DNA from: Candidatus Omnitrophota bacterium
Lineage (GTDB): Bacteria; Omnitrophota; Gorgyraeia; Duberdicusellales; 4484-171
Direction: 5' to 3'
Assembly: GCA_037146775.1 (NCBI GenBank)
Contig: JBAWWL010000001.1
Location: forward strand, 5,464 to 69,463
DNA: 64,000 bases
Numbering within the stretch: the stretch's first letter is position 1; each line of letters opens with the position of its first letter. Below, in pieces: positions 1 to 39,000 of this stretch. The notes under the pieces are model-generated. The model was not told the origin of the DNA. It saw only the letters and a list, made by a program, of their open reading frames with translations, and did no database searches. The translations under genes were made by a program, and so were the position numbers.

Positions 1-3000
1 GCGCGCTTTATCACCACGTAGGAACTATTAATCGAATGCTGCTTCAGTTTTATAGAGAATTGAATATTCATATGCTTTATCCTATCCATGGAGGTATTCC
101 GGAAGAAAGAAGATCGGCCAGTTATGAAGATATGGGGAGAGGAAGGATATATTATTATCCGCTTCCTGGCAAAGGCGTTGTAAGTACGCTTAGAAATATT
201 GTCCGGGAAAATAGTATTGATTTGATTGCTGATCATAGTCCGGCATCAAATATCGCATTAGCGCTTTTACGTATTGCAAAGAAAAGTCATATACCTTTCT
301 TCACCCAATGGCACATTTCGGACCTGAATCATCCCGCAGTAAATAGAGAAATTTTTGGGCAGGTTGTTATGGGCGCAGACGCGGTGGCTGCAGTAAGTAA
401 GCCCGGAGCACGCGCTATACGTCAGGAATATAATGTTGCCGCACAATATATACCTTCAGTACGCGATTTAGCCGCTTTTGATATTAGAATCGCCAGTCCT
501 GACAAAGCCCGCACCCTGTATGGTTTAGATAGAAATGAGTTTATTGTCGTTTCGCCCAACCGTATTGTTAGAGAGAAAGATCCTATAGCCATTGTGAAGG
601 CATTCGAGATGCTAAGACGAAGATTTGCTAAAGATAATTTTAGGCTTTTGATTATCGGTTCATCTACGGATATAGAGTATCGCGCAGAACTAGAACGTGT
701 CATAGACAGTTTAAATTTGCGACGACACATAGTAATTGTACAACCCACCACTGACAGAACTTTAATGCGCGATATATATGCTTTAGCTTCCAGCCGTTTG
801 GGTTATGGTTGTGTTGTGCTTCCTGCTGCCTGGGGTGAAGGTACTTCCGGAATTTTAGAGGAAGCTCAATTAATGACAGCTCCGATAATCACAACCAGAG
901 CTGGAGGTAACGCGCAGACAGTTATATTTGGTGAATACGGTTCCGCCCTAGAGGTCGGTTTTAATAAGTATGATGAGCCTGCTTCAGGAGCCAATCATAA
1001 TGAGCTTGCAGCTTCCCTGGCAACCTTAATGGATAATCCGGCCTTGGGGCTTCAGATGGGAGCAACCGGCCGAGCTTTTGTACAAGCTAAATTTAATCCA
1101 TATAATATTGTGTTAGGTATACATGCACCGCTATATGAGAGGCTTATCGCTGGTGCTAATAGGCAACGCGAATACGCGTCTTCATCTCTTTCTCGTATAT
1201 TTACTCATTATTCCCATCTAGACAGTTTACGAATTACTAACAAAGTCTCATCCACTACTTACTATGTATTATTGACTATATACCATCAAAGCAGTTCTCC
1301 GGTTTCTCCGCATACCCAAATTAGCTGGCAAGGCATTAACCGTACCATTAAAGAATCGCCATACTACAGAAAGCTTGCTTTAATCGGAAGAGTAATTCCG
1401 ATATTTTCAGAAACTGATACTTTGCATTCGCGTTTAAACCACATAAGAAGAGTGCAAAAGGTTGCCTTAAAATGGTTTTCAGAGTGGATAGGAACCACAC
1501 GTCTCACTGACGCGTCTAGGCTGGGGACCGAAGAGTCATTAGGAGATAATGCCAATTTAATTGAATTTTTTAGTATTGCGCATGAGCTTGGCGCGGTTCC
1601 TTTTCTGCATTATAGAAGAAACGCTATAAATGAGTTGGATTGCGGTCAGAAAATTATTGATGAATTATTTCTTACACAGAGCGCAATTCCTGCGCCCATA
1701 CGCGGACATTTGCGAGAGGTAAGTCTACTTTTCTTAGACAATATTGCTGATTTATTTAATGAAGCTAGGTTTGTGGTGGCATCCGAGCAGATAGTAACTT
1801 GTGTCGAAAATGTTGTTTTCGGCCTGAGAATGCAGTTACTTAGCGAAGAAGCAGCTGCTAAACTTCTTCATGATTTCAGAGAAAAATTTGGGCCTAGTAG
1901 TCTAGTCCATGTGGCAAATCTTACCGAGCCTCAACTTGATGAAAGGATAATAACACTTGCCATAGGTTTTATTGAGAGAGTACTTAACTATCGCGCTTTC
2001 CAACAAGAGTTAGGCAAAATACGGGAATTTAATGCCAGGGGTGAGCAGGCTCTCGTAGCTAAAGTACGACAAGTCTATCGAGCAGAACAATTTCAGGCAG
2101 TTATGGCTATTGTGATAAACAGTATAAGTGGAATTTTTCACGGGGATAGGCGTTTGGTAGAAAGTGAACTTTTTAAATTAAGCGAGCTTGATGTACTTAA
2201 CCGGGCAGCTACTTTGAGAGGAAAGAGCCAGGGCAATTGGCAGGAGCGTTTGCTTAATGCCGGCCAGTCTCGAGCTCAGGCGGAAAGGGTATCTCTTACG
2301 CAAGTTGCTCAAATGCGTTTCAGTGGACACAAAAATATTTTTGAAATAAGCGCTGAACTTAAATTAAGCCCGCAATTAGTTTGGCTAATGATCCAACGTG
2401 CACATATAAAACGTTTGATAAGAAATCCTCTGTCGCCAGGAAAAACATTGCCGCATCTTGAAACTCTCCTTGTGCTCTACGCTATGGTTATTACTCCTTT
2501 TGTAAGTAAAGAATTGGGTGTAGAGGTGGCTTCTCTACCCCAGGTGCCTTCTGAAATTTCCGAAGCGGATATGCCGGTAGTTCTGCAAAGGTTAGAAGAA
2601 TTCTTAGTAATTCTTGAAAATACTTATGCTGACCCCAGGCTTGGATTTGACCGTCTTTTTAAGATAGGATGGGTAAGTTCTCAGGAACGGTTAGGCGTCG
2701 CAGGGCCATTAGCAGCGGTCTTTCGTTACAATTTAGTTTATCTGCGTTTGAGCGGTATTGAAAGAAAATCAAGAAAACAATCAAACAATGTCCGTTATAT
2801 CACCCAGGATGTTTTGGAAGCAAAAATGAAAGGCTCACGTCGCCGTAAGCAAAGTGGATCGCTTTTGCAACAGATAGAAAAAGGCAATTGTGTAACACTT
2901 GTGAGAAGGCTTGGTATCATTGCCCAAGCATTTAGCTCTACGGATTTTGTTATTAAAGGCCTTTTTCCCGAAACAGAAGATAGATTTAGGCTGGTTGTGG

Positions 3001-6000
3001 GGTTACTGTGTAGCGTTGAGCACGTTGAAACTGCGCGTACAATTGTACTGGCCGCAGAAAAAATCAATCAACCTAAAAAGAAAGACGAACAATCCCAGGC
3101 GCCTGGTGCGTTAAAGATAACAAAAGATACGCCCTATCAAGAGCTTATAGACTTTTTATTTAAGTCTAATACCTATGCCGAAAGCAAATCAGGCATGTAT
3201 TGCCTCTCTGGCGGTGCATTTTCTGTTTTTGGATATAATTTACGTTTATTATGTAAAAGAGGAATACCTAGTGAAGGCGTAAAAAGAGAAAGACGAAACG
3301 TTAATGCTCAATTGTCAACCGCCCACATCCTGCCGGAAGATATTGCTTTTTGTATTGGCCGCCGCGGCCCAAGCACCGTGAGCGAATTGGTGAGGGGGCA
3401 TACGGCCATCGTAAGGCCAACTATTGTGCTTATACATGTAATCGTTATGGCGTTAGCTGATGAAGCTAATTTTAGCTTAGATGACGTTACTTTAGCGGCA
3501 CCTAATAGATTAAGAGAAGTAACAAATTTCCTTTTTAACCCTGCCTTGATTAGACAGGCACTTATGATTGTTGATACCGATGAAGAATTAAGAGGTGTTG
3601 CTGTTTTAGAGCGAACTAAAACATCCATAACCCAGGCCGCGAGGGGTGGAGCGAATTTTTATGTTGAAATCAGGAAGAGGTTATTTCCGGATAATGGCGA
3701 ATGGGAGCTTAGCGGTCCGGGCAAGAGCGTGTTTAGCTATAATTTAAGTATGCTACAGAGAAGAGCAGTTACCCAGGAACATCTAAGAGCGAAAAGGAGA
3801 AATGTAGTGAAATTAGCGGCTGTACCTCAAAAGAAAAATCAACAATCACCCACACAGATAATTACTTCCGACGATATCGCTTCGGTTATGCATAGAAATA
3901 GTGGATTTTGCGGAAATTTAAACAAGGTTAAACTTAACATAACTACTCTACACGCGCTTAGCTTAGCTTTATCCAGGGAAGATGATTTTGTTCTTGATGA
4001 TGTTAAACAAGGGGTGGGGGATAGAGTTGTAGCGGTAATAGATTTACTTTTGGGTGTCGAGCGTTTGGGAGAGGCGAGATTAATGCTTGAGCGTGTACAG
4101 CAATTAGAGGGCTGTGGTTTTCCGTTTGAAGACGCAACAATTATAATTGATGCTAAGACGCCAGTGGATATTGTTGCAAAAGTTACTGCTTCTGCTAAAG
4201 GCGCTGCAACCGTGCTTGGGCCAAATAGTTCTGTAATTTTCAGCACAAATTTAAGGGGGATGTTCTCTCGCCGCGGTCCGATTCGCTATAGGGATTTAGC
4301 TCTGGGATTACATACAACGCCAAAAGCTGTACATAATCTGAAAAATACTGAACCGGCTGTCTACTTAGAGCGCGTACACAGTGTTATTTTAGTAATGGCG
4401 AGCTTAAAAAGCACAGATTTCAAAACCACACTTGATGAATTATTTCCTGTTACGCTTCAGGTAGCTTCTTCGCCATCCGTAAATGCACTGGGTGAGGCTT
4501 CATCTCCTTCTCAGGTAAAAGTTCAGCTTTTCAGATACTCTAGAGATGTTCGTTTCAGCGAACATACATTTGAGATTCTTGGGAAAAGATTTGAATTATT
4601 TGCTAACGGATTCTTGCGTATCGAAACACCGCAGGAGGCGATCTATCTTTCCCTAAACCATCGAGATACCTATGGTTTTATGGTGGCAGAATATAAAGCC
4701 GGACGTATCCAGGGCAACGAAGACTTCGTATTTATTGATAATAGTTGGCATCCGGATAATAACCCGCTTAGCCGTCCGGCTCCCGAACTTTCTGAGCCAC
4801 TCGCAAGACATATTGCTTTTATGCGCACAGATAGTCGTTCCAATAGTTTTGTCAGCGCCGTAGCACATGCTTTCAACGCTATGCCGCGTGTATTCCTTGC
4901 CGAGAAAAGACCTTTAGTAGACTGGGGTGGCTGTGATTTCGCAGATCGGGCACCAATAACGCGTTATCCAGCGGCGCAGTCTAATTCTATCTCTAGCGTT
5001 GATTGCGATATTATTATTAAAATAGCAATTTGGGGCCTGCACCGCAACCATCAAGCTTTGTTGCGACATGTGTTGAGAGTGATTATGCCCTCAAAACTTA
5101 AATTGATACATATTAGTCCTTCCTTTAACGGAGAACATTCCGATACGGTTACTAACTTTGCGCAAAACCTTATTGAAGGTATTTTAGCCGAACGCGGAAT
5201 CTTTAGCATAGGAAATCGCAGGAATGTTATTTCTTCCGCTGTTATCTTATCGAACGAAAGGGATGCTCTGATTCAATCAGTAATAAATGTTTTTGGCATT
5301 GGCGAAGGTTTAACTTTAAGCCGCAGTGATATTGAGGCAGCAATTAAGATAGATACTACAGATGATCCTTATCGTATTAGCCGTAATCTTCCGGTTGTAC
5401 TTGCTTTAGGTGGAGATATTTACAGAAATTGCCAGCTGAATCAAAAGCCGTTATTGATAGCGTTCGTGGGCAGGGGCACGGTTAATGAACAAGGTTTAAT
5501 TCTTGATGCTCAAAGCCGGCAAGGCTTGGCTTGTGAAGGATGCCGCCTGGCTAATTCCATGGAAATCAAAAACGCCATCTGGGAAATACCTTATCATGGC
5601 AAAAAGACTACTTTTATCATACAAGATAAAGATAACTGGTTGGCTATGCCGGTTCTCTATGGCCCAGAAGATATTTATCAAAAAGGATTATTAATCGGAA
5701 AAGGCGGAGACAGAATTACGCGTTTAGGCCATGATATCGCCCAAGATACAGGTGTCGCTAATGAAGATGGGATATTTGAGGATTACACAAAAGCTTTAGT
5801 TACTGCAAGGTTGTTAGGTTTTTCTATTCTTGACGGCCCGGATATGATGCGTGATGTGGATAGAAGAATGGGCTTGATGGTTAGAGCGGCAAGGGCGACA
5901 GCAACGGATATTAGCGAATTTGCTTTAACACACACCGGTTACCCGGTTTTCCCTCAGAATGAATTCCTCAAGGTTACTACCAGCAATCCCGAGAATGAAG

Positions 6001-9000
6001 GTGGTTTTTCTCATACCAGCTGGATGGTTACTAGCCGTGGAGTGGTACAGGGAACAATTAGCGCTTTACGTTGGATTTTACATGTGCTTACGGCTCATAC
6101 CGGAGAATATCCGCAGGAAGTAGTTGATTTCTTAAAGCGCCTTAATATTAATTTCGATAGTTTGAGTGGGCTTATCCAGGGCTTTGGCGATGTGGGAAGC
6201 GGTATCGCTAAGCTGCTTTTGACTGTTTTTGAAGTATTTAATATAAGGATACGCGGTTTCTCTAATAAATATTTTGCTATTTATCGAAAAGACGGTTTGC
6301 CGCAAGAATTCGTTATGGAAGCCCGCCGCATCGCCGAAGTTTCTCCGGATGCTCTTACGGCTTTACGTTTACTTGAGATGAGTTACTTTGGGGAAAACCT
6401 TTCCGGAGCAACGCTGTGGGTAGCTAATCCGTCAAACAGAAAAACGCAAGTTGCATTATTATCTCCGGCAGATATAGCAAGATTATCTACCCAGTGCCAA
6501 AGCAAAGGTGTTAATGCTACTTTTGGCGATGCCGCAATCGTAAACGAACTTATCTATCAAGAAGCTACGCTGTTATTTCTTGCCGCCGGTGCAAATATTA
6601 TTATTGATCCGGAACAAATCAATAGACTACAAGCTTCGGTGATATCTGAAGGAGCGAATAACGCTATCAAAATGGATCTTCAACCGCAACTGCGCCGCGC
6701 AGGGAAATTATATTTGCCGGGAGAACTCTTGAATGGCGGAGGAATTTATACTTCCAAGGAAGATATTCGGCACAATCATACCGATGGAGTGGCGGCGATA
6801 GTCCATAACGGAAGCTATTATCATACTCATGTTACTGACGAGATAGATTCACTTGTCTTGCATCGTACTATTTCCTTACTTGAGCGCTGGGCTGAAACCG
6901 ATGCAAACTTTGCCTTAGATTTTACTGAGCAGATAAGAATAGTAGCCAGAGGAATTTCAAATAGAGCAGATAGTTTAGTCAGAGAAGGAAACCGCCGCTT
7001 GATGCAATTTGCAGCTATTGACCAGGAAAGAGTCAGAGACCGTTTGAGTGGACAGCCGAGATTGCCTTTGCGGCATTCACTTTACGAAATTGCCATGGAA
7101 ATGGCTCCTGCGGGAATTTTATATCGGCCGCAAGATGTGGGTAGATATTTAGAACAATTAGAACGATGGCAATTTATGGTTTGTGAAGACGGCCGTATAG
7201 ATAATTACGATATTTGTCAATTACGGCTGCTTCTTTTTGTTTTGATGAAAATGAGTTACTACCTTAAGGCAGATCAGCGTAGCAGGCTTATCGCGGTGCT
7301 TACTTCAGCTATCCCTAATAAACACATTGATAATTTAGTGCGCAAAGAAGCTTTGGTTTGTTTAACTATGGTAGTAATGTGGCATGCTCATAATCGGCAA
7401 GATGTTGTAGACAGAGCGGTTAGTTTATGCCGCGATATCTTAAGAGATCCTTCGGAAACTGCCCGGTTACATGTATGGGCACAATACTCACTTTACCGGA
7501 TTATGGGAATTGGTTATTTAGAGCAAGCTCAGCTATTAGGCTCCGATACCGCAAGTTACCAATCTTTACCCGCCGCGCAGATAGCTGAAACTTTATGGCA
7601 TAATGCGCTTGTACTTACCGCGCAAATTCTGGGCGTGCATAGTGCAGATGAAGTTGTAAATAGGTTACGTGTTATCGGCGATCGGTCCGCTCACGGCCAT
7701 TTCAGATATATTCTGGCAACGTTAATTGCTCAACATTTGTCTATGGCGATACCCGGCATACGTAGCATATGGGCTTTTGGTGATGTGGGCGATACTGAGC
7801 GAGCTCGTCCAAATTCTGATTTAGATTTTATTATTGAAGTTGCTAGCGAAGATGCGCGTGCTCAGGTACGCGAATATTTATTTATTATCCTAAACAGGTA
7901 CCTTACTGAACAATTTAACGCCATGATGGATGGAACAGGCGTCCAAAGAGCAGGGTTGATTGAAGCCGACCACCCGCAAGCGCCACGTATACTTTTAACC
8001 CAAGAAGTTTTACAAGGTATAGGGCTTGCCGTGTTGATTCCTTATCCTGGCAGGCTCAGCGCATATCGAGAAGGATTGGCTACGTTGTTATTTCCTGCCA
8101 CTATTGAACAGCTATGGCAGAATACGGCAACAAACTCCAGCTCATCGCTTGAGAATAGATTTAATTCAGAGAAAGTTTCTTCCTTGGGGGCAAATATTGT
8201 TGCCTTGCCTTTTGTCGGGCGGGGGAGGGTTTCTTCATCTTTGCCAAACACGGTTGCGCTTAATGATTTAGATTTGCAAACCGCGGAGTTAATCGGCCAG
8301 GGTGCTTCAGCCAAGATATTTAAAGTTTCTCACGGAAAAACAGGGATGAAGTTTGCCTTAAAGATTTATTGCGGCCAGAGTTTATTATCTGAGGGTCAGA
8401 GTAGAGAGAAAGCCAGAGCTATTACCGCTTACGTATTAAAACTTTTTGGCCAGCACGCACAATTAGCCGAAGAAGGATTTATGCCGCGCTATTACAGCAG
8501 AGGCGAAGCGGCTTTTGATTTTAATACGGGAATAAGTTCTGGACAAATATATCCGTATTTTGTTATGGATTATCTTGACGGAGAAGCTTTAAGTAAACTT
8601 TTATTCCGGCAACATGCGGCTGTTTGCATAAGAAGCGCATTGCCCGGTGCAAGCTTAGATACATCTGCAGAACCCCACTGGCCACACACTTTAGCTGACA
8701 GGTTATGTCTTGCTATGGCTATAGCGCGCGCTTTAGAAAAATACCATAAAGAAGGATTGCTAGTGAAAGAATTAAAACCAGAAAATATTATTGTCCGTCC
8801 AAGCCACAAGGCTTCTTTGGTTGATCAGGACGGTATTGTGCCTCTTGGCTATGATTGGCTGATGAACCCTGAGCATATTCCTGAAATAGTGCGCGCCATA
8901 CATGCTGAATTATTCGCTGAGGATATTTCTCCGTTTATATACCGCGATAGCTTTTTAGAAAAGAAATTATTTACTGAACAATGGGATATTTATAGCTTTG

Positions 9001-12000
9001 GCATGGTATTACTTGAAATATTGGATTTTGATTGGTTTGCAACCACTATGCCTTTATTAAGAGCAAGATTTGCTTTTTGTGGTTTGAGCACTCCTGGTGT
9101 GCTACGCCGTTTTATAGATCAGCATATTGGCGAACATACAAGGTTAAATACAACAACTGGCAGAGCATATAATATCTTAGGTTGCTGCATAAATTTAGAT
9201 AGAAGCAAACGTTATCCTGACACACAAGCGTTATTGGCAGATTTACAAGCCTGTCATGCGTTTGCTGTGCAAGAAATTTCTTCAGCCATCAGTGAAGAAG
9301 TACCTACAACAAAGACACTTTCTCCTTGGTTAGAGGCGCGGTTATCTTTTGGTTCATCAAGTTCGTCTTTAGGTTTTGCGGATATTGGTCAACCCAAGGT
9401 TAGAGAATTTTTAACTGCTCGCCAGGCTGTTATTAATAACGCTTCGCCCGATTACATTAGGGCAGTAACCTTTGGAGAGGTTTACAAACATCTTGGGTTA
9501 TATACTGATCTAGGAGATCCTAATGTAGCTGCCATCATCGGTGATTTAGACGATTATTTTACAGAAATGAAAGATCAAGCAGAGATGTATGCGGCAAGAG
9601 CAATTATAGAAGGCAACGAATACTTTTGGTTATGTTATTTTAAGAAAATGCGCCACAATAACCGTACTATTGAGTTGAAAGAATTCTTCTATGTCAATGG
9701 CATTAATATTGCGCATGGATTCTCTGTAGTTCAGCCGGAATTAATTATGCTTTTTATGGGCATTGATGAAGATTCATTTAAAGGTACAGGGCATATGCAG
9801 GTACTTTTTGATATTAAACAGGCGGTATTGCGAAAGGTATTCGGCCGCAGCAGCTTCGCTATGTTAAGTAGTCAGATACATGACTGGAATGCATTCTTTT
9901 TCTACATACGTAGAGGCTATTTACCGGTATCTCCGCAGCTACGGAATTTAGTAATAGATAATTTTCTTATACCCTGGTTACAAGATCCCAAGTATCTTGT
10001 TCAAAGCCCGGAAAATATTTTCGGAGAAGATTTCTTTCATCATGCGAGAAGGCTTAAATTTTTCTTTGAAGACGAAGTGCAATCATCATCGCCGGTTGCG
10101 CAGCAGGCGCAAGCCCAAGTGCTTTTTGATGTAACTAAACAAAAGTTTTATCTACCTTTAAGCCTACGTTATCTTGCTCTGCCGCTAAAGGCGGTATTAA
10201 ACGCCCAAGAGACAAAGCGCGAAGAAATTAAATTAGCCGTTGTTTTCGGTGATACAGATATTAGCTTTGAGTACGATAGCGAAATTACTCTCGGTGGAGA
10301 CGAGGAGCAGATATTACGGCAGCAACTATCTCAATTTAGAACAATGGTTGAGCCTATAGTGCGCTTGCCGCGGCGTATTCTTGTAGGATTTCGTTCGCAT
10401 TTTACCATGGAACAATTCAGTGCTGACGTTGTTTTCGGTAAACCTGTGCGTGAGGAAGCGCTGCAGCCCCTTATTGAGTTTGAAGAGCGTTTCTGGTTTA
10501 GCTATGCGCTTTTACGTGTGCCGGCAGCGCTTAATTATGCTGCGGTATATCCATGCTTTTTGCCTGAAGCTAGTGATACACCTTGGGAAGCTGTTAAATA
10601 TGATTCACCATATTATCAGTTCTTTTTAAAGACCGTTCCCGATGCTTACGGAACATTACTTGATCCGCTGCATTATTTATTTAAGTTGGACGATTCTTGT
10701 CGCGAATGTATAAAACGTATGGAAGCAGTTTATCCGTATTCTTATTTTTTCTTCCTGCGCCTTAATGCTATGGTCGAACAAAAACTCTTTCCAAAGTGGC
10801 TTGGGCTTGATATGAGTCGACCTTTTTATGTCAAGAGAATAACCGGTTTAGGTGATATGCATGTTTGCTTACGTTGTCTTGAAGAAGGACTCAGTCAGGG
10901 CAAGTTACAACTTGATTATTTTCAAGGTGCTGCTGATTGTCCCGGACAGATTATTCCTGTGCGCAGTAAAGTTCCTTCTGTTGGCGAGCTTGATACCTTT
11001 ACTGTAGAGACATTAGTTCCCTTAATTACATCCGGCAGAGTTGTTGCTGATAACACAAAGCTGGTTGAATTATCCGGATATGATCAAGAAGGTAATGCAG
11101 TAGAGAGAAAAATTATCTATAAACCATTCGATGCTGTGCTTATTGAAGGAGAATTTTCGTTTTTTACCAGAAATTTGCTGCTTCCTTCCTGCAGAGTACA
11201 GCCGGTGCAGGATGATTTTGGTATGTGTGGCTGGGTAGAGTATCTTGAACACCTGTCGCTTTCCAGCGATGTTTTATGCGAAAAGTTTTTAGCTCGTCCT
11301 CGATCGTTGGCCGAGTTTCGCTTTCTACTTTTTGTGTTAATTGCTTTAAGCTATCCTCTGGGGATTGCCGATTTTACCCAGACCAATTATTTTGCTGTAA
11401 TTCCTGGAGTGAATGAAGATAAAACAATATTATGGCCGGTGCGTATTGATACAGAGACAGGGTTTACACCTTTTAGCACCACCCTTCTTGAATATCTGCA
11501 GAAAATATACCCAGTACTCACCGATGAGCAGCGTTTTCCTGAATATTGTTTTGGCGGTAGCTTTGATGAGTTTGTGCGGGCTTTTATCGACACAAAAGAG
11601 CTTTTATTAAAGCCAACACCTGCCGTACCAGAAACTGCACTTGGCACTATTGGTAATTTTGCCCAGCGTCTGCTAACTAAGATGGATCAAGGCGTGGCTT
11701 ACTGGAGGAGAGAAATTATAACAAATACAGTAAAATACGCCGCTGATGCCCGGCTCAAAGGCATATCACCTTATTATTTACGCCGGGTTAATTCTGGACA
11801 TATACAGCAAATGATTATCCGTAACGTTATATTACATGTGTTTTTAAATCACAATAGCTCATCGCCTATAGTACTTGAACAAATAACTGACATAGATTTT
11901 AGCAGTATAATTGCCAAATACTATCGCGGAGCGCGCCAATTATCAGATCATTTGTTGGCTCTACCGGTAAGCAGACAACTTAAAAAAATATCCCAAGAAA

Positions 12001-27000: not shown

Positions 27001-30000
27001 TAAGGCAACTGCTAATTCATCAATTAGGTAATATTTTTGGCGCAGTTAATATTTATGACTTGGATATTGATGAGATTCGTGGGCTTTTCTATGAATCAGG
27101 CAGGGCGATTAACCCTAATACGGATAATATTTTTGATACTATAGCTCAGTTGCGGAAAGTGCGTGTCAGGCAAGAAGTCACGCATGGCAGCCTAGAGCGT
27201 TATCTTTGGCTTACCGGTTCCGATTCGATAACCGATGGCATGTGCGATGAATGTGCTAGAGCCCTACGAGATGCAGAACAACGGCATATTAGTGTTTCAG
27301 TTGAAGGTAGACATGTTATAGATTGCGGAAGTATAAACCAATATTATGGTGTGGTTGATAATATGCACGGCCGCATAGTTATAGATTTTGCGCTTGGGCC
27401 CTATGATCTTAAAAAATATGAAAAGCAGGTGGTAATTTTATCATTGGCTGAGTATCAAGATTTATTGGCAAAACTTTTTGCGCAACAAGTTGAAACTATT
27501 TTTAGCGCGGAAAAAATAGAATTAATACACAAGCTTGAGCATCAATTTTGGGCAGAACGTTTCGCGTTACTTTCACAAATTGCCAGCCAATCCAGTCCGC
27601 TGACCATTCATAGAGGCTCTTCAGCTATCCCGGCAGATATGGCTACAAAACCAGAAATAGTTTTGCCTACTACCCCTCGAGAATGGTATGAATGTTTTTA
27701 TCAAGTTTATCGGGCTTTATCTTGCCGCAACAGTCCTGAAGAAAATACAAGGCTTTTGGGGTGGACTTTTGAAAATTTAGAAAGGCTGGAAAATGATCAG
27801 GGTGAGCGTTTTGGCCGGCGCGAAAGCCATCTAAGACTATTAGCTCCTAGAATTGAAGCATTGCCTGGTTGGGGCAGGATGTTACGCGTTATACGAGAAA
27901 GTAACCCTGTGGCCCGCCGCAATTTAGCAATGTTTGAGAAGGACTATTTAACTATTTCGATCAATGTTCAGCTGGAGGCTGAATCTAGGACTATTGAATC
28001 AAAACAGGCAGCATTTGTAAAACTTGCTGAAACCGCAAGAAAAGAAAAAGCAAGAAAAGAAGAAAAGAATCGTAAAAGAGACGCTGGAAGAGGCATGACT
28101 CAAGACGAACTGCGCATAGCAGCCCGTAAGCGGGAAAAAGGACGTATCTCCAAAGAAAAAGCCAGGCCAGAAAAGAGGCAAAGAAAAGCTTCTGTTGAGG
28201 TGATTGAACCAGCGCAAAACCTGCCTGTATCCGTAGCAGTAACGGCAGATAGCGAGGTTTTAGCTACTCTTGATCCTATCGTTGTTCCGGGCGATACCCA
28301 GAGCGATACTGCGACAGAATCTGTCGTTACAGCTCAACCAGTAGTCCAAGCTACTATGCAAGTCCAGGCTCTTCCAGGAGAATTAGTCAAGCTTATAGCA
28401 ACACGCCGCGCCAAAGGTTTAACCTTCAATAGTTTTAGCCGTAAGTATGGTATTAGTTTACCTTACGTCTGGATAGTTGAGCATCGTTTAATCGTTGAAG
28501 ATTGGCTAGCTAGGCTTGACCAGCCTGAAGATGGCGCTGTTATGCTTGAGATAATAGAGCAATCACCTGCAATATTGATGTTTTGCGCAATTATGAATAC
28601 ATCTTTTGTAAATGAAAAACTTCTTGGATTAGGATTAGCTGAGAATGTGCCGTTTCCTTTATCTTTGCAAGGTAGTGATAAATCGGTTATCCAAGAAAAT
28701 TTAAGAAGAGCATTGGGAGTCTTGGCTGCGGTCGAAGCGGTTCATACACGAAATAATTCAGCCTTAGAAGAGTATTTTACAGTAACAGCAAATCAGCAAC
28801 GCTTGGCTGTTGTAGGTCAGCTACAGGCAGTAATGCGGGTTAATCTTACCCGGTTACGTTACCTTGGGGTGCGTAGCGGAACCTATCAACGTATTTCACA
28901 GGATGTACTTAGCCAGGAAACAGGTTTGCATCAGCAGACCATCCTTTATCTTGAACGCGGCAGAGATAATAGCCCTCTTTCGATGGAGCCGCTTATTAAA
29001 ATTATTCAAGCTTTAGCTTGTAATGAAAAGTTTGATTTTCCTATACCAGAAATTTCCGCAGTAGGTGAAAATGAGCATGCAGAAAAATGGGAAAGAGAAC
29101 AAGCGATATTGAATGCTTTATGCGACTGGCAGGAATTAGACAGATTATACCGCCTGCAAATGGCCGTAAAAGTTACCTCCGAGGCTCTTCTTTTATTAAG
29201 TCAAGATGGAGATGCTTCTGCAGATGAAGATTTTAATCACAAGCTTGATATTGCTTTAACGGATACTGCTGAGGGGGTCTCTTACGTTAATAAAGCAGAA
29301 ACATTAGTTCCTGCCAAGGGAGAACTTCCTGCCTTTGAAGGCTTGTTTGCTATTTCTTTTGGTCTAGCTGTGCGTCTCGCCAGAGAATTAGGTACTAACC
29401 TAGAAAGGTCTACAGACAGTGTTGCGGGTCAAAAGAAGCGCAAGCTTTTAGCGGTTAAAGATATAAGTACTGCAATCAGGCGGCCTGATTCATATATACT
29501 TTGTATTGAGCGTAATGACTCTGAAGAAGGTAAACTGATTATTTTTTATGTTGACGCAATTATCGCTTATTTTGCTTCTAAAGATATAGTTTTGTATGAA
29601 GCTGGCACAGGAGTTAACAAAGATTACGCATCAGTAGTAAAAATGCTATTTAATATTAGGGTGATTGATCGCACGCGTATACTTATCGCAGCGGTTCAGT
29701 CAGCCAATGGTGCAGATCCGGAATTCATCGCTAGCGAATCGTCTTTGGCTGATTTAGTTTCTAAAGGAGTATATGAAGGCAATAACGAAAGGCGTTTTAA
29801 CGGCGAGGCCTTGCGCCGGCTAGGCTTAAATCTAAAGGTTCTTACCCAAACTACACCCATTGAAGGAAAGCCTTATACTTTGGAACGGATGGCCGAGGCG
29901 CTGCATATTTCTAAGCGGCAACTCTTTCGAATAGTAAATGCCGAAGCGCCCATGCCTTATGCGGCATTTTATAGTATGGTAGTAAGCTTAGCCCAACTTT

Positions 30001-33000
30001 TATATAAACAGGCTGGTGTAGAAAATCTGAAGGTTATTACTCAAAGACTTTTAGCCCAAACAGCTTCTTCGGTTATTTCATCCGGCATTCATGTTGTGAG
30101 CAGTCCATTAAAAGAACGTGTGGTAGCTTTAGCTAAAACATTACAGCAGGTAAAGGCAGGATTGGATAGGAGTCATTATGTATTTGGTGCAGCTAGCTTA
30201 ACATTGGGTGTGGTTGGTATATTCGGAGCTCCTTGGATTGCCCCGTTTTTATTGCAAGTTTCCACACAATCACTTCTGGCTTTAACCGCCCTTGGCGGAT
30301 CGGGTGCCTATGTATTATTTGTTAGGCCGCGTTTACGTAAACGTAATGAACAAGAAATCCATTCGCGGCCAAAACAAAGAAAGCGTGACAGAAGAAAAGG
30401 AGATATTAACCGCAGGCAGTTTCTTGGTACATCATTGGTTCCTTTAGCTGGCTCGGTAGTTATGCCTTCTTTGGCAGCGTGGGGTTTACGTAGTTATTAT
30501 GAACATAAAGGTATGTTAAGCGCTTCCGAACGCGCGCATTATTTAAATATTGCAAAACGCATACAGCCGTTAGCAGAAGAGCTTTCGGGAGAATTATTTG
30601 CGCAGGATGAATCTCTTAGTCGTTCTTGCGATACGATGTGGCGCGATTTTAATTTACGTCTTAGCCGCTCAGACGGAAGAGTTGTTGTGACGGGAATGGC
30701 AATTATGTCCGCTTGCATCACGAATACCGATACTGCGGAATTGTATTTTTGTGCCAATCTCGATGCTTGGGATGCTTTATTTAGTCTTGGCAGGACTGAG
30801 CGCGAAGCATACCTTACCAAAGCATTCCTTAAGAGCTTACTTTTAAAAGAATTAGTTCATTTTTATGATTTTCGTACGCACCCTAACATTAATCGATTAT
30901 TAGATGTACAGTCTGAAGAGTACAAAAGGAATGAAAAGCTTTATAAAGATGGACAGATAGCCAAAAGAGTACTTTTAGAAAATGCAAGAAAGTTCGTTGC
31001 TTCTCAGATTTTTATCGAAGCCCGTGGCTTTGAAAAACAACTTATGTATCAGGAACAAAATGGGACTACGGCGGATGAGCTTTTAGTTTTAAGCCGCGTT
31101 CGTACCCCCGCTAATCCTACAACCTATAAAGAGCTTGCTCAGATAGTGCTCTATGAGGCTGCAGGCCGGTTGAAGAATGAGAGTCCGAATACCGCAACAG
31201 GCAGAAGTAATTTACGCCGTCATTTCTTATTGAATTTAATCAATCCGGATTTAGCAAAGACAAAAGAAACGGAACTTATATCAAGGGCGGCTAGATATGC
31301 TTTTGGGGCAGAAGAAGAAACTTATAAGTCTGAAAATTTTGCCCAATGGCTCAGTGACATAAGTTACTATCAGGAATTTTATGATCTTCTGGAAATAAGC
31401 CGTTCAGAAACTGGTTCATCTTCTTCATCCGTCAAAAATCAAGAATACGCTTCTGTTTATCGCACCAAAGATTCTTATTATCCGCCGAACATAGGACAAG
31501 TAAAACGTGATCTTATGGGGGCGTATCCTTGTGCGAGCGCATATTTTTCTTTGGCTATAAGCGATAAAGAACTTAATATAAACGAACTTATGACTGTTGT
31601 CAGCCAAAATACTGAATCAAGCGATGCGAGTAGAGGTTTTGCGTCAAGTGCGATAGCATTCCGTGTTTCAAGTCCAATTGTTAATTATTCTTATTGGGAG
31701 TTAAAAGATGGAAAAATAGAATTAAAGCGTAGGAGAGTAAATCTTGATTTAGTTCCAGTAAATGGAGCCATAGTTAAGGTACTACTATGTGGTATTTGTC
31801 GCGCAGACACTAAAGAAGTGATTTGCGCCAGAATGCTTGTACGAGGGCCTTTGTTCGGACATGAACTCGTTGGTGAAGTTGTCGCAACTGGAGTAAAGAG
31901 CAATTTAGAAAAAGGTGACAAAGTTGTTTTTAACCCCAATATAACTGCAGAACGTACCCCAGGTTTTGCAGAGTATCTAATTGTTTACGATGCTGCCGAC
32001 GAGGCTCTTATTAAGGTTCCTGCTAGAATTGATTCAGATGTTGCAGTTTATGCGGAACCGTTTTCTTGCATTGTGCATAGTGTTGATAGGTTACAAAAGC
32101 TTTTAGGGTTAAAAAGCTTTACCGGAAAAAAAGTAGCAATTATTGGCGCAGGCAATGCCGGGTTATCTCATGCCTGGTTAATAAGACATAATAGAGGTGA
32201 TGTTACTTTATTTAATATTGCTGATGGACGTCTAGAATTTATAAAAGAAAGAGGCCTTTTTGATGGAAAAAAATGTTTACTTCTAGACGAAGCAGAAAAA
32301 TATCGAAATAGGTTCGATCTGGCAATATTAACTACCACAACAGTTAAGTTGAGAGGTCGGAACCCAGATAAGATTTTAGATATTGCCTGGAACTTGGTAA
32401 AACCTACCGGCTATATTCATCTTTATGGAGGAACTAGGCAGGGAGATGTGTTTAGGGGTGCAGATTTAGACTATGTAAGAAGAGAAAAGGCAGATAGCGT
32501 TACGGTGAAAGATGGTCGTAGGAAGGTTAGCTTTACTGGCGCATATGGCACTAAAACAGCTGATTTTATAAAAACATTTAGACTTTTCCAGCAAGAATAT
32601 TTCGCTTCATCGGTTAAGAAGGTATTTTCAGAGGAAATCAGCTTTTCACAATTAAGAGCTACTATGGCTAGAATCGTGAGGTTGATGGAAAAGATTGATT
32701 ATGGAAAAGAAATAGCAGATATTCCGGGGAAAGTAATTATTAGAGTCTCAAGCGCAATAGAGGAAAAGGAACATTTGGATTCTTATTTGTTTTATGCCGA
32801 ACTGTATCGTAAAAATATAAGAAAAGTATCCAGTTGCGTGTATAATATTCTTACCGGAATTCTTCCTAATCGGTTGCGGCAGGGCCAGGGTTGGCCTACC
32901 TTTCCGTGGCTGGCGGAGGCCGGCTTCCCTGCCGTAGCCGTTTATATTTGCGATAGTCCTGTTTTTGCCCCGCACAGTAAATTTATTTCTTTTGTATCAT

Positions 33001-36000
33001 CACCGGCTTCAGACAATAATCCTCTCGCCAATGTGACGAGTATCGCCCGTTCCCCGTATAGCCTTGGTGCAACCCTTAGGGTAATGGCAGATTGGCTTAT
33101 TGTGCATCAAGAGCGCCGGCAGCACCCCCACCTGAGATTTATCCAAACTTATCCGGCTGCTTTAACTTATGGGCGTTACTATACAGATAAGCAGTATTAT
33201 TTTGCTAAAGATATTAGTAATTTTAGCCCACATACTGGGTTGTCTTGGGTTTCGGTAGGTATGGATTTAGTATTTGAAAGGCTCAGACAGCGGCTTTCAC
33301 GGCCCGATGATGCGGCAATATTTACTACATATCTTGGCCGTGAAGCTTGGGGCCTTGGATGTGGCATGGTATTGGCCGATGAGCATGGAGAAGATTTTTC
33401 AGATAGGCTCAAACAAGCTTTGGGTAAAGATTTATTGGAAGCCTTGGATTTTCGTATGTTAGATATTATGCGCACGCATAAATTATCTGCCCCGCAGGCA
33501 ATCATATATTTTTTACAGCATTTGCCCCAATATCATGAGATTGCTGACCCACTGTCAAATGCCGCAGATATCTTAACCGAATTAGCCGTCGAAGCATTGG
33601 TTGGGGAATTTCTTGAAGAAAAAGAACAAGCAGGATTGATTTACTGGTTTGTACAGGAAGGCTTGGTCAATCCGCATTTAGCAACCCTTTCAAGTGTCCG
33701 TCAAAAAGCTTATCTTATTGGCCAGGCTAGCGATGCGGCGATATTAACCAATGAATTACGCGAGTCATCTATGTGGCGCTTTTCGTTTTTACTTAACGGC
33801 AATCTTAGATATCTTTCTTCGCACCGCTTTGAAAGAATTTTTTCGTTCTTTATGCTCTATGCAATTCTAACCTACCTTACTTCTGGGGGTAGGAGTGGTT
33901 TTAATCCAGAAACAGGCGCTATCCTTGCCATAATGCGTCATGTGTCGTTACCTAACCAGTTATTTGACGGTATTTTGCAAATGCTTCTTGAGCCAGTCAG
34001 GCAACGGGCGGCTGCCATTACACGTTCTGTAGAAAAACTACAATTTACGCTACCCGATCCGGAAGGAGCGCTAGAACGTTTTAGCCAACAAGTAAGTTCC
34101 TATGGTATATATTTAAGCGCCGAAGTCTTAAAGGACATATTCGAAAATATTTTTTATAAAATACACCCTGATTACTTTTTCAAAGATGATATTACAGCAG
34201 TGCGTTGGGCGCTGACGGCGAGTGATTTTTCGCTCTGTCCGGATTCCCAGATAAAGCTTATGATGGCGTATTACAACGTAATTTTAAGCCAACGTGCAAG
34301 TAAAACCAGTTCACCCGTACCCTTATTGCAAAATCAACAATCTATGCGGCGTATACTTTGCGTTGGCGATAGTATTACGCGCGGGATCGCGCACTCAAGC
34401 CACAAAGAAGGATATCGCGAGCGATTGAGCGAATTATTCCATGAACGCGGTATTTGCGTTGATTTTGTCGGTCCATTCCTTGAGCCAAATCTAAATGCGC
34501 ATCGTCATCTTGGCTGGGATGGTCTTAAAACTTGGGATGAACCTGCTCCGATGTGCATCTTTCGTCTCATTAAGCAGTATTTAAGCGATTCGGCGCCGAC
34601 TGCCATACTTTTACACGCCGGCACCAATGATATTTCCCACTATCCCCGGTCTGCAGAGGTTTACGCGCGCAATGTGATAGAAATGGTTAATTTTATCGAA
34701 CGGCATAATTCCGATACAGAGATATATATTGCTTTGATCATACCGCGCGGGGAAGAAGCCGGTACGGAATGGTATGAAGCGACGAAAATCTATAATGATT
34801 TTCTGCGACAAAAGATTCGCAGTTATCTCAGTCCCTTAACTGGGCAGCCCAAGTCGAATCTTTATCTGGTTGATATGTATAGTGCGTTTACAGCCAATTC
34901 TCAGTGGCGTAATGACTATATGGCTGATCCTTGGCATCCTAATGATAGGGGCTATGAAGTAATGGCAGAGGCTTGGTTTAGAGCGCTTACTGACCCGCGG
35001 GCCGCAATAGTTACAAATTTATTAAGTGATTTTCATTTCCACTCATTATCGTTAGATTCATCCGATCGTCGCATTGAGCGGCTCCGTGTCATTAATTCGC
35101 TGAGTTTGTTATACACACTTTTTGCGCAAGCAAGCCTTCTTGAGGGACATACCGTTATTCATCTTGCTGCAGGATTAGAATTCTTAATGTCTGCTTTTGC
35201 TCCTACTATTATTGTCGATATCGACCCGCTTTATGAAATTGAGCCTCGTAGCCATTGTTTTAGAGATAAATATGTTCCTATGTTTTTAAATAGAGAATTT
35301 TTGCAGAGTGTTAGCTGGAAAGAATTAACCTGCGTGTCCGGCAATATGTTTAATTCTGATACAATACGGAAAGTTAAAGCAGCGATTAAGACAGAAAAAA
35401 TAACAGTTCTTATGAAGGGAGAAGGCTGGCCGGGCTGGGGTATAAATTTAGAAAATCAAGAATGGCGAGAAGCATATTATGGATTTTTAGATATGATTAT
35501 AGAGATTTTAGTGCCGGATCAGTTTATATTCCTACGGCATGAACACTGTCAAATGCCATCGGATTATTTAACCGCAACTAGAGGATACAGAAGAGTTCAT
35601 GATTGGCTATTGCCAGAACATAGGCAAAGTCTTACGCTAGCCTTTGAGAAGATGTGCCAAGGTAATGTTTCTGTTGATTTCGGCCAATGTTTTGGCTTTA
35701 AAGAAATTGCCTTTGCTACTGAGGCGCTTATTTTACAGCGTTGTGCCTCCAGCCCTTCGATTCGTTTCGTTCACTTCCGCCTACGCCAAGGCTTCGGCGG
35801 GCAGGCAGGACGTCAGCACAATAGTGCCTCCAGCCCCCTTGACACAAATAATGCAGGCCAATCCAGCATGGTTCAATTACCGGAAGTAATGGTACGGTTA
35901 GCCAGGCATCAAGGTGAATATGAAGTAGTTTCGCCACAACCACAAGCTTTGGTTGCTAATGATCAGCTAAGAGGCCGTCTAGATAACCTTTTAGGGTTGC

Positions 36001-39000
36001 TTACAACCTATATGCCGAGCGGCCCTCCTTTGACCATAGTAATGACCACTAGCCTTTCTGTTGTAGACCACACCCGTACCGCTCATTTTCTTGATGCCGC
36101 CTTAGCAGAGATTGATCCCGGAAGGAGAACGATTGCTCTGCACCACTCATTCTTTGATTTTCCTATTATCTTCCAGGCTGATATCTTACGTATTCGTTTT
36201 GGATATTTAAACGGTTTATCGGAACCAGAAGTATATCAGGATAGCCTCGCTCATTTTGGAACATACCGAAAACCAGACGCGCAAGAAAAAGACGAATTAA
36301 CTCAATTTTTAGAAGAAGCCGAAAGTATGGGTTTTGCATTGCCCGTTCTTTATCGGGAGGCGCTTAGACAATTACAGCGGCTTCATTTTAGTGAGCTTGA
36401 CCGTCATCTTTTTATTGGTGAAGGAAATCATTTCCAGGCTTATGAGAAGCTTGGCGCTCACCTTATCGCTGCAAACGAGAGAAATCTCGGTACTTATGTT
36501 GCGGTGTGGGCGCCGCACGCCCAGTTAGTTTCTGTTATAGGTGATTTTAATAATTGGGGTAGTGTGTATGCGCATCAGCTATCCAACCATTTAGGAATTT
36601 GGCACGGGTTTATCCCGGTTTTAAATAAGGATAGGCGCTATAAATATCGAATTTTAGGTCGAGACGGTATAGTGCGTGATAAGGCCGATCCCTACGCATT
36701 CTTCAATGAGCATCCCAGCCAGGGGCACGAAAATTCTACTGCATCGCTCGTTTGGGATCTGCACTACCAATGGAATGACCAGGAATGGATGAAACAGCGG
36801 GCTTCAAAACAGGCATTAGATAAACCTATTGCTATTTATGAAGTTCATCTGGGTTCATGGAAGCGTAGCGCGCATAATTGGCCGCTGGATTATCGAGAAT
36901 TTGCCCGGCAGTTGGCGGAATACGTGAAAGAGAATGGTTTTACCCATGTCGAGTTACTACCCATAACCGAGCATACTTTCGAAGGCTCTTGGGGTTATCA
37001 GGTAGGCAATTACTTTGCTCCGACCTCACGCTTTGGCACGCCTCAGGATTTAATGTATTTGGTTGATTATTTACACCAGCAAGGTATTGGGGTTATCCTT
37101 GATTTTGTGCCCGCACATTTTCCCAAAGACGCTCATGGTTTGAGCCGTTTTGACGGAACAGAAATCTATGGTCATCTTGACCCTGCCCAGGGAGAACACC
37201 CTCACTGGGGAACCTATATATTTAATTACGGCCGGCATGAAGTACAAAGTTTTCTTATCAGTTGCGCTTTATTCTGGCTCGAAAAATATCACATTGATGG
37301 TCTGCGTTTTGACGCGGTCGCCTCGATGCTTTATCTTGATTACGGTAGAGAGGGGAGACCTTGGGTACCAAATAAGTATGGCGGAAGAGAAAATCTTGAA
37401 GCAATTGAGCTATTAAAGAAAGTAAATACCATAGCTCACGCTCAAAAGCCGGGAGTTTTAACTATTGCCGAAGAATCAACCGCTTGGCCCGCAGTATCGC
37501 ACCCGGTGCATTCAGGTGGGCTAGGCTTTTCTCTGAAGTGGAATATGGGCTGGATGCACGATACGCTGAAATATTTAGCAAGAGATCCTATCTACCGGAG
37601 CCATCATTTTGGGGAGTTAACTTTTATTTTTGAGTATGCTTTCTCTGAAAATTTTGTATTGGCTTTGTCTCATGATGAGGTTGTACACCTGAAGCGCTCG
37701 TTATTAGAAAAGATGCCAGGCGACCAATGGCAAAAATTCGCTAATCTTAGGCTTCTTTATGCCATACTGTATGGTTTTCCCGGCAAAAAATTAATCTTTA
37801 TGGGAGGAGAATTTGGGCAAGCTAGCGAATGGAACCACGATACGAGTTTAGGGTGGGGTCTTTTAAATCTGCCTTTACATAGCGGGTTACAGAAATTATT
37901 TTGTGACCTCAACAGGCTTTATCGCGGTGAACCTTGTTTGTATGAGCTTGATTTTAATCCGCAAGGCGCACAAGTAGTTCACTTTGATAGTACAAACACT
38001 GTTCTTGGTGTCGTTCGTAGAGGCATAAATTCCAACGAAAAGCTAATATGGGTTTATAACTTTACTCCAGTGGTTCGCCATGGCTATCGTATAGGCGTGT
38101 CTTGGCCAGGAAAATGGGAAGAGGTGTTGAATAGTGATGCTAAAATTTACGGTGGCTCAGGGGTTGGTAATTTAGGTGGTTTATATGCCGAAAACATTGC
38201 TTTTGGCGGTAAGCCTCATTCTATACAAATAGTACTTCCGCCATTGGGGGCAGTGGTACTTAAGGGTAAGCGTAACCAGGCGTCTTCAGCAGTAGAAAAT
38301 ACAGTTAGTTTCGCTCGTTCCCGCCTACGCCAAAGCTTCGGTGGGCAGGCAGGACGTCAATGTGATAGCGTCTCAAGCCCCGGGAGAATGTTAAATGTTG
38401 GCGGAAAACAATTTCAAGTTACTCCCAAGTTAATAGCTGATCTCACTTGGCAGTCAGGGCATAACAATCTTATTGCAATCAAGCCCGCTGGGGATTTTAT
38501 TTTAAATCACCTTAGGGCTTGGTCAAATTTATTTATACTGCCTAATAATTGTCTGCCCATGAAAGGTATTTTAAGAGGTGTTAATATCGGCTGTGGCGAT
38601 TCTCAATTTTCAAGGATAATTGATCAGACTTTCCCCATCGTAGAAGAATTTATTGATGTTGATTTGGCAGAATTTCCTTATGGTAATTGTCGGTACAGCC
38701 ATTCTGTAGTAGCTGATGCTGAGAATCTCCCTCGAGACATGTTTCCCGACTCTTCCTATGATTTTACTATTCGTTCTTTTGTTTCAAATTATTTAGAGAG
38801 TCAGGAGCGAGGCGTACGTGAAGCATTAAGAATTCTACATCCGAATGGCCGTGCCTTTGAGATATTACACCATCAACAATCAGGCTATTTCCATGCAGAG
38901 CGTGTATATCAAGAGCAAGCTCAAGATCAATGGCCTTATCTTCGTACGGTTGATGATGTAATAAAAATTCTTTATTGGCTGAGAGAAATTTATTGGGCAT

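Follow-up and report, generated by a model that had tools for sequence, protein, structure and literature searches.

The systems that come closest to the locus described here are the giant proteins of Omnitrophota and the glycogen debranching and branching enzymes of other organisms. The Omnitrophota giants termed "Archaeovorins" combine GT5 glycogen-synthase-like, GT1, TPR, HEAT and PPDK domains; most giant-protein domains were predicted to be extracellular, with a link to predation, and cleavage of the giant proteins was proposed, at points that are unknown (West-Roberts et al., bioRxiv 10.1101/2023.11.21.568195). A later preprint recognised the "multi-enzyme metabolic cluster" as a class of its own, described a co-occurrence module for sugar metabolism, reported that Omnitrophota giants are overwhelmingly sequence-unique and argued that metabolic modules of this type lie at the cytoplasmic face (bioRxiv 10.64898/2026.06.07.730766). 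Such multi-enzyme giants were discovered only recently and are little understood, above all in how they are assembled and in whether their product works as one chain or is cut. Here we describe a window of 64,000 nucleotides (nt), i.e., the whole stretch that was analysed, from a Candidatus Omnitrophota contig (JBAWWL010000001.1, positions 5,464 to 69,463 of the forward strand). It is part of a multi-enzyme giant gene, and a glycogen debranching unit, a glycogen branching enzyme (GlgB) and a GT4-family glycosyltransferase lie within its single open frame.

Multi-enzyme giant genes of Omnitrophota have already been published, and the GH133, GlgB and CBM48 modules reported here are new details rather than a new kind of gene. 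In both giant-protein preprints "glycogen" refers to GT5 and GT1 (10.1101/2023.11.21.568195; 10.64898/2026.06.07.730766). GH133, GDE_N, a GH77-like barrel and GlgB/CBM48 are mentioned neither in the main text of either preprint nor in a supplement of the 2026 preprint.

We consider it fairly probable that the window belongs to the interior of a multi-enzyme metabolic giant, in which the debranching unit, GlgB and the GT4 module are in-frame cassettes that work in the cytoplasm, as tethered modules, on the cell's own glycogen-like storage glucan. GlgB would cut an alpha-1,4 chain and re-attach the piece via an alpha-1,6 bond. The transferase barrel of the debranching unit would shift outer glucosyl residues from a short branch onto another chain end, and its GH133 domain would then hydrolyse the remaining alpha-1,6-linked glucose, which is the "indirect" route of the eukaryotic and archaeal glycogen debranching enzyme (GDE). 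The fusion would enforce co-expression and co-localisation of the modules. The glucan enzymes appear as one theme among many in the giant protein, not as its purpose.

An open frame across the window

Frame +3 is free of stop codons across all 64,000 nt, whereas each of the other five frames contains 907-1,876, so that the open frame cannot be a product of chance. As it continues beyond both ends, the window must come from the interior of a gene that is much longer. Only two open reading frames (ORFs) of at least 150 amino acids (aa) lie wholly within the window. Codon-position composition is equal in the Pfam-annotated and the "dark" parts of the frame, which suggests that the frame is coding throughout, and the amino-acid composition of its translation is globular-like. 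Pfam, scanned on overlapping 2,000-aa chunks of this translation, leaves about 80% of the ORF without a match and recovers about 18 distinct families, none of which exceeds the three copies of Pkinase.

The first-pass annotation had placed four enzymes in this frame, in the order GT4 glycosyltransferase (nt 3-1110), GH77 4-alpha-glucanotransferase (nt 15480-17400), amylo-alpha-1,6-glucosidase (nt 17420-20340) and GlgB (nt 36390-38270). Pfam and NCBIfam scans recover the same modules in frame +3, in that order and at nearly the same positions (Table 1), and the catalytic residues are retained in all four: the triad of the GH77-like barrel, the GH133 pair, the Asp-Glu-Asp of GlgB and the E-x7-E of the GT4 module. 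They are apparently active enzymes and no dead relics. GT4 and GDE_C score above their Pfam gathering cut-offs and GlgB above its NCBIfam equivalog cut-off, and GH77 scores below the cut-offs of both Pfam and NCBIfam.

The homologs of the window show an affinity to Omnitrophota. All named nearest homologs of three independent window regions belong to this phylum, and the one relative found for 2,801 aa of "dark" sequence, a distant one, is an Omnitrophota ORF fragment. The window agrees with the multi-enzyme metabolic class in having at least 10 kaa (thousand aa) of stop-free sequence and many Pfam families, none of which dominates by copy number. It likewise resembles the published Omnitrophota giants in its HATPase_c, methyltransferase, glycosyltransferase group 1 and kinase-type modules, in being about 80% "dark" and in having almost no relatives. 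Unlike them, the 64-kb piece contains no HEAT, TPR, GT5 or transmembrane (TM) segments, features that are present in related giants carrying the same debranching unit. Set against the description of Archaeovorins (at least 30,000 aa; HEAT, TPR, GT5 and TM; no dockerin), the window provides at least 21,332 aa, a length limited by the window itself, and no dockerin.

Two other views of the open frame were rejected. Separate translation of the modules, or a recently fused operon, disagrees with the uniform codon-position composition and with the absence of an in-frame start codon preceded by a Shine-Dalgarno-like motif at the edges of GlgB and of the debranching unit. A repetitive, adhesin-type giant is incompatible with the globular composition and with the scarcity of internal repeats, of which self-BLAST of the translation returned only seven, all weak.

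Table 1. Positions of modules, repeats and linker motifs in the 64,000-nt window
Feature	Position (nt)	Strand	Remarks
Giant ORF, internal part	3..63998	+	Frame +3, at least 21,332 codons, open at both window ends
GT4-family GT-B glycosyltransferase	132..1142	+	aa 44-380; domain start probably at or just before window start
SSPL-type site after GT4	1293-1304	+	
ELFV dehydrogenase-like (Glu-dehydrogenase-like)	6129-6776	+	Pfam
Kinase-like module 1	8280-9212	+	Pfam; paralogous stretch 8172-9270
Pre-fused "indirect debranching" unit	14988..20324	+	aa 4996-6774; collinear with stand-alone Omnitrophota proteins
SSPL at N-terminal edge of debranching unit	14997..15008	+	aa 4999-5002
N-terminal beta-sandwich domain of unit	15033..15467	+	AlphaFold model m1fe364e5a079 residues 16-160, all beta
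Divergent GH77-like (clan GH-H) (beta/alpha)8 barrel	15495..16982	+	
C-terminal beta-domain, GH13 "domain C"-like	16992..17405	+	Model strands at residues 669-806
GDE_N domain	18087..18587	+	Pfam PF12439, E 5e-18; aa 6029-6195
Window-specific insertion, about 110 aa	18627..18959	+	aa 6209-6319; BLASTP breakpoints 6208 / 6320 against P0001-P0007
GH133 amylo-alpha-1,6-glucosidase (alpha/alpha)6 domain	19098..20306	+	Pfam GDE_C, aa 6366-6768
SSPL-type site after debranching unit	20532-20543	+	
HTH_3	28893-29024	+	Pfam
ADH_N	31767-31946	+	Pfam
GDSL lipase	34353-34976	+	Pfam
Direct repeat, upstream copy	35761..35837	+	77 nt, in frame; encodes ...RLRQGFGGQAGRQ...SSPL
SSPL-type site before GlgB cassette	35829-35840	+	
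Complete GlgB branching enzyme	36411..38264	+	CBM48 + GH13 catalytic + C domain; aa 12137-12754
Direct repeat, downstream copy	38305..38381	+	77 nt; starts 41 nt past GlgB end
Other motif sites	31668-31679, 34308-34319, 58419-58430		

A debranching unit in stand-alone and embedded form

Amino acids 4996-6774 of the window are collinear from end to end, at 34-47% identity, with P0001-P0010, which are single Omnitrophota proteins of 1,673-2,073 aa. This implies that a bifunctional unit was acquired ready-made, in one piece, by the megaprotein. The earlier view that glucanotransferase and glucosidase are normally encoded by separate genes is therefore wrong for Omnitrophota, where both belong to one pre-fused unit. 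The unit forms stand-alone ORFs of 1,691-2,076 aa at the loci L007, L009, L010, L011 and L013; at L008, L012 and L014 it is embedded in ORFs that are open across the full length of the retrieved locus, about 24.5 kb (at least 8,178-8,307 aa). The stand-alone form is present in five to six Omnitrophota metagenome-assembled genomes (MAGs). The genome scan detected only one copy of the unit per MAG, embedded or stand-alone, which is compatible with a housekeeping job of the embedded copy. Apart from one MAG labelled Planctomycetales, family-profile scans of GTDB representative genomes and JGI metagenomes matched only Omnitrophota MAGs or unnamed metagenome contigs.

The same unit cassette sits in different giant genes with unrelated flanks. 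Comparison of about 3.3 kaa on each side of the unit in L008, L012 and L014 with the window revealed no similarity beyond one weak match of 26% identity, and a conserved module order between giants was rejected for this lack of synteny. The flanks of these three loci carry GT5 starch-synthase-like, GT1, GGDEF, RelA/SpoT, HATPase_c, TPR, HEAT, PEP-utilising, methyltransferase and ribulose-phosphate epimerase modules, the palette published for Omnitrophota giants. In L012 (contig JBAZKL010000001.1, 838 kb; locus nt 2-24922; giant ORF of at least 8,307 aa) GT1, GT5 starch-synthase-like, GGDEF and RelA/SpoT modules lie upstream of the unit and HATPase_c, TPR and PEP-utilising modules downstream, which makes it a second case of glycogen-related modules within one giant.

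One stand-alone gene (1,681 aa) is located among housekeeping genes on a 217-kb contig, and another has biotin, GT2 and TPR genes as neighbours; a glycogen operon was found in neither of these two contexts. The embedded copies are not recovered as one clean clade in a quick neighbour-joining tree, but this tree has long branches that lack support. It is possible that the unit was captured or released more than once. Its occurrence both as an ordinary gene and as a cassette in at least four giant ORFs represents a natural experiment on module capture.

The assignment of the transferase barrel to GH77 is doubtful. The Pfam family Glyco_hydro_77 scores 21.9 bits against a gathering cut-off (GA) of 25 and covers profile positions 123-224 of 465 (aa 5253-5346), and the NCBIfam amylomaltase models reach 15-23 bits against cut-offs of 477-1322. 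A single-sequence search of the PDB with the barrel region returned only GH13 C-domains, while a profile built from homologs of the barrel matched amylomaltases (1tz7, 2e-6). Structurally, a (beta/alpha)8 barrel closest to amylomaltases and an Asp/Glu/Asp triad are present. The catalytic candidates are D5479 (nt 16437-16439, GWRLDGLH), E5520 (nt 16560-16562, VEQLG) and D5574 (nt 16722-16724, DTHDS), and the motifs GWRxDxLH, VEQLG and DTHDS are invariant in 11 of 11 family members.

Canonical GH77 enzymes are not known to have a GH13-type C domain. The model of the unit, by contrast, possesses a C-terminal beta-domain, which is similar in sequence to the C-domains of trehalose synthase (TreS) and GlgE; with this domain and the N-terminal beta-sandwich, the glucanotransferase-like part spans nt 15033-17405. 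GlgE, TVAII and TreS, all GH13, are the top Foldseek matches of the whole model. An exhaustive phmmer search of 1.84 billion representatives retrieved only 13 relatives of the barrel, eight of them at E <= 1e-30; four of these eight are members of the unit family (P0002, P0003, P0009 and P0010), and the remaining hits are without annotation. We interpret the module as a rare, divergent GH77-like barrel of clan GH-H and not as a regular GH77 member. It may merit a CAZy (sub)family of its own.

The glucosidase part is well supported at the family level. GDE_C (PF06202) matches with E 1.6e-54 and 185.7 bits (GA 21) over profile positions 5-366 of 367, and the catalytic pair of GH133 is kept as D6508 (nt 19524-19526, in TFMD) and E6739 (nt 20217-20219, in SISEV). 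A family profile aligned with human GDE (8zeq) and yeast GDE, at about 4e-20, places the TWMD motif on D1261 and the SEV motif on E1502, the columns occupied by D6508 and E6739. The domain is predicted to hydrolyse the alpha-1,6-linked glucose stub. Between GDE_N and GDE_C the window carries an insertion of about 110 aa, which the stand-alone homologs lack.

In its order of transferase and glucosidase the unit mirrors eukaryotic GDE, as had been noted in the first reading of the sequence. Like GDE/AGL (8zeq, 5d06), it is a single chain with an N-terminal transferase barrel and a C-terminal GH133 (alpha/alpha)6 domain. The eukaryotic transferase, however, belongs to GH13_25, whereas the barrel of the window is nearest to GH77 amylomaltases, and the Pfam domains hGDE_N, hDGE_amylase and hGDE_central are replaced in the window by the bacterial/archaeal GDE_N. 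Probably only the GH133 parts are homologous, and the shared architecture arose by convergence. Archaeal and bacterial systems with GH133 and a separate GH77 MalQ (PMC11046441) share both chemistries and the GDE_N + GDE_C architecture, but the window and the stand-alone Omnitrophota proteins unite both activities in one polypeptide. The best NCBIfam model for the GDE part, TIGR01561 ("gde_arch"), scores 101 bits, far below its cut-off of 364. With GH77-like and GH133 domains in a single chain, the unit would be a rare bacterial counterpart to the indirect debranching enzyme of eukaryotes.

The branching enzyme, its flanking repeat and the linker motif

The identity of the GlgB module is unambiguous from its sequence. 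It passes the GlgB equivalog NF003811 with 886.3 bits (cut-off 741; profile positions 5-618 of 619) and TIGR01515 with 832.8 bits (cut-off 464), and it matches the solved GlgB structure 6joy at 2.4e-214. Pfam recognises CBM_48 (3e-18), Alpha-amylase (1.8e-15) and Alpha-amylase_C (7.5e-20) within aa 12149-12754. The conserved catalytic Asp-Glu-Asp and the His of the GH13 conserved sequence regions I-IV are present, in the motifs DFVPAH (12367-12372), RFDAV (D12437), AEES (E12490) and SHDE (D12558). The module is 57-61% identical to ordinary 635-aa GlgBs of many phyla. It has the full CBM48-A-C layout and all catalytic motifs of canonical GlgB (GH13_9; 6joy, 1m7x), but differs in lacking a start and stop of its own, in being embedded in a giant ORF and in the 77-nt repeat around it. 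Another embedded GlgB occurs at aa 454-1129 of P0020, an Omnitrophota ORF fragment of 1,654 aa that fills a contig of 4,965 nt. At the truncated end of P0020, after GlgB, there is a weak match to NTP_transf_3 (nucleotidyl-transferase), which could be a sugar-nucleotide pyrophosphorylase module beside GlgB.

The two copies of the direct repeat are 81% identical, with a 38-nt core of 36/38 matches; none is expected by chance, and the repeat is unique in the window. The copies lie 2,544 nt, i.e., 848 codons, apart and bracket the GlgB cassette; at the protein level, aa 11915-11991 resemble aa 12763-12839. The repeat could be the footprint of a cassette insertion or of a linker duplication, and a GlgB cassette with in-frame flanking repeats is of interest as a possible insertion footprint.

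The upstream repeat copy encodes a short motif that recurs throughout the window. SSP[LIVM] is found in 25 copies against 1.17 expected, an enrichment of about 20-fold (at most six copies in 200 shuffles), and the motif and its variant [RKQ][VI]SS together account for about 40 sites. It lies 10-29 aa upstream of six of 14 module starts (P ~0.002), is nearly excluded from module interiors (one copy against 8.2 expected, P 0.001) and has polar, linker-like flanks (P 0.0002); all of these statistics are post hoc, as the tests were picked after the pattern had been seen. The codons for Ser, Pro and Leu vary among the copies, which points to conservation at the protein rather than the DNA level. 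Five of six occurrences of RLRQ fall 8-17 residues after the motif. In the window the motif brackets the debranching unit, its N-edge copy falling in a stretch of the AlphaFold model with a confidence score (pLDDT) below 50, and in the mid-size homologs P0003-P0005 it marks three domain boundaries. In L008, L012 and L014, by contrast, it is rare (0-3 copies per about 8 kaa), which suggests that it is lineage-specific. A longer junction motif, YVLxTIYxQ, was dropped because it occurs in two copies only; the recurrent core is SSP[LIVM] / [RKQ][VI]SS.

The motif may delimit modules or serve as a site of processing or regulation. The idea of a phosphorylation site is weakened by the three kinase-like modules of the window, two of which lack canonical VAIK, HRD and DFG motifs in a regular-expression search. 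The enrichment at module boundaries offers a handle that can be checked in existing proteomic data.

Its distribution would suit a polyprotein, in which translation of the giant ORF is followed by cleavage or another form of partitioning at [RKQ]-[VI]-S-S-[P/S/A]-[LIV], so that the modules work separately and the fusion serves only co-expression or stoichiometry. The strong enrichment, the conservation of the protein sequence, the position ahead of module starts, the avoidance of module interiors in favour of linker-like sequence and the placement around the debranching unit and at the domain boundaries of its homologs all point in this direction, and cleavage was likewise proposed by West-Roberts et al. 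We nevertheless hold such a polyprotein to be rather unlikely. Pfam scans of the window detected no protease domain. The 2-kaa homologs carry the motif also between domains of one and the same enzyme, so that a cut there would sever transferase from glucosidase. A proline directly after the serine pair is, as we assume, an unusual context for cleavage, and the rarity of the motif in other giants and the post hoc nature of its statistics also count against this view.

A related and equally tentative idea, to which we assign a low probability, is that the giant gene was built from cassettes and encodes a polyprotein-like chain. The element [RKQ]-V-S-S-P-[LIV], often followed by RLRQ, would act as punctuation at the N-terminal edge of modules, with a role in processing, docking or phospho-regulation, and whole enzymes would be moved by in-frame recombination at the linkers. 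The recombination part draws on two examples, the unit that is both stand-alone and embedded and the GlgB bracketed by the 77-nt repeat. If true, the punctuation would provide the missing map of modules and cleavage points in Omnitrophota giants, together with a mechanism for their growth.

Location and role of the glucan modules

No TM-like segment was found in the 21,332 aa of the window at a strict insertion-energy threshold, which gave no false positives in 70,214 aa of GlgBs. An earlier Kyte-Doolittle scan had suggested a topology with two TM segments, with the debranching unit and GlgB on opposite sides of a membrane; it was rejected under this stricter threshold. The modules of the window include ATP-, SAM- (S-adenosylmethionine), NAD- and CoA-dependent types. 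Together with the lack of TM-like segments, this makes a cytoplasmic role of tethered enzymes in the turnover of storage glucan the most economical interpretation.

Several observations weigh against this interpretation. The unit of the window is the most diverged copy, keeping 83% of otherwise invariant positions compared with 93-96% in the others. In the GH133 domain, 36 of 162 positions (22%) that are invariant in nine other copies are substituted, among them W6506F, E6523D, N6524I, R6527D and D6594C; several of the replaced positions are charged and near the catalytic Asp, where GYTVENNARW has become GFCGDINADW. The glucosidase may be altered in specificity, weakened or under relaxed constraint. 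GlgA, GlgC and GlgP modules are absent from the Pfam scans of the window, and NCBIfam models assign no specificity to the GT4 module. Signal-peptide-like N-termini were called, by a heuristic, in six of six complete stand-alone homologs (P0001, P0002, P0003, P0005, P0006 and P0007), and the ancestral unit may have been located outside the cytoplasm. Finally, the window shows the gene in part only, and translation of the ORF and its persistence in one piece are assumed.

The signal-peptide-like N-termini suggest that the free, stand-alone enzyme is exported. At the C-terminus, P0003, P0005 and P0007 also have a conserved tail in common, which is about 70 aa long (DLGGIDLN...GLPLPLPQQP...GFFPVIFYVVPV). 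Extended to the giant, this would mean that glycogen set free by lysis of prey or host cells is processed outside the cytoplasm by the unit, and perhaps by the segment as a whole. The location of stand-alone genes outside glycogen operons in both contexts, the TM-like segments near the unit in L012 and L014 and the extracellular prediction and predation link of West-Roberts et al. would agree with export. In the window itself, however, the complete lack of TM-like segments and the presence of modules that require ATP, SAM, NAD(P) or CoA argue for the cytoplasm. GlgB is biosynthetic and normally cytoplasmic, the 2026 preprint argues for the cytoplasmic face for metabolic modules, and the signal-peptide calls are heuristic. 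We consider export of the window segment improbable.

The GT4 module is generic. Pfam finds Glycos_transf_1 (E 5e-12, 46.1 bits; GA 26.4) and Glyco_transf_4 (4.6e-7, 30.5 bits; GA 28.5) across aa 44-351, and the E-x7-E motif is intact (E279/E287, nt 837-863). Its NCBIfam matches are to generic GT4 models, at 20-45 bits against cut-offs of 260-575, without a glucan-specific equivalog; the best of them are a mixture of PEP-CTERM GT, glgA_Coryne, TuaC, MshA and EpsE. As the module stays below every specific NCBIfam cut-off, the alpha-glucan role given to it in the first-pass annotation cannot be demonstrated. Some archaeal glycogen loci include GT4 genes, whose function is unclear (PMC11046441).

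The same annotation had proposed that the four enzymes are united in a potential single-molecule machine for alpha-glucan remodelling, to cooperate on one substrate. Branching, debranching and glycosyltransferase modules do occur within one ORF, GT5 starch-synthase-like and GT1 modules accompany the debranching unit in L012, and a "sugar-metabolism" co-occurrence module has been published for Omnitrophota giants. The glucan modules, however, constitute only 12.8% of the visible ORF and are scattered, 4.6-5.4 kaa apart, among at least 12 unrelated modules. With a GT4 module not tied to glucan and flanks of the unit that differ entirely in other giants, a conserved glucan "assembly line" does not exist, and we regard a dedicated machine as highly improbable.

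Downstream of GlgB, Pfam identifies two methyltransferases, an LMW phosphatase-like module, two more kinase-like modules, PTA_PTB and HATPase_c. The three Pkinase-like modules (nt 8172-9270, 42990-44080 and 51400-52560) are paralogous, with 25-30% identity and a common DIY[SA]FG motif; the two in which simple pattern searches do not recognise VAIK, HRD and DFG may be pseudokinases. Directly upstream of the third lies a tandem duplication with a unit of about 217 aa and 50% identity (nt 50202-51509; aa 16734-16950 and 16955-17169). No other internal duplication of the window is both strong and recent.

A distant internal repeat in "dark" sequence (nt 4593-5126 / 14130-14678; aa 1531-1708 / 4710-4892) shows 29% identity over 184 aa, with its second copy some 100 aa ahead of the debranching unit. 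The G+C content rises to 0.46-0.47 at 18001-20000 and 58001-62000, compared with about 0.41-0.43 elsewhere, the first peak corresponding to the GH133 domain. GC skew is positive in all 2-kb bins of the window.

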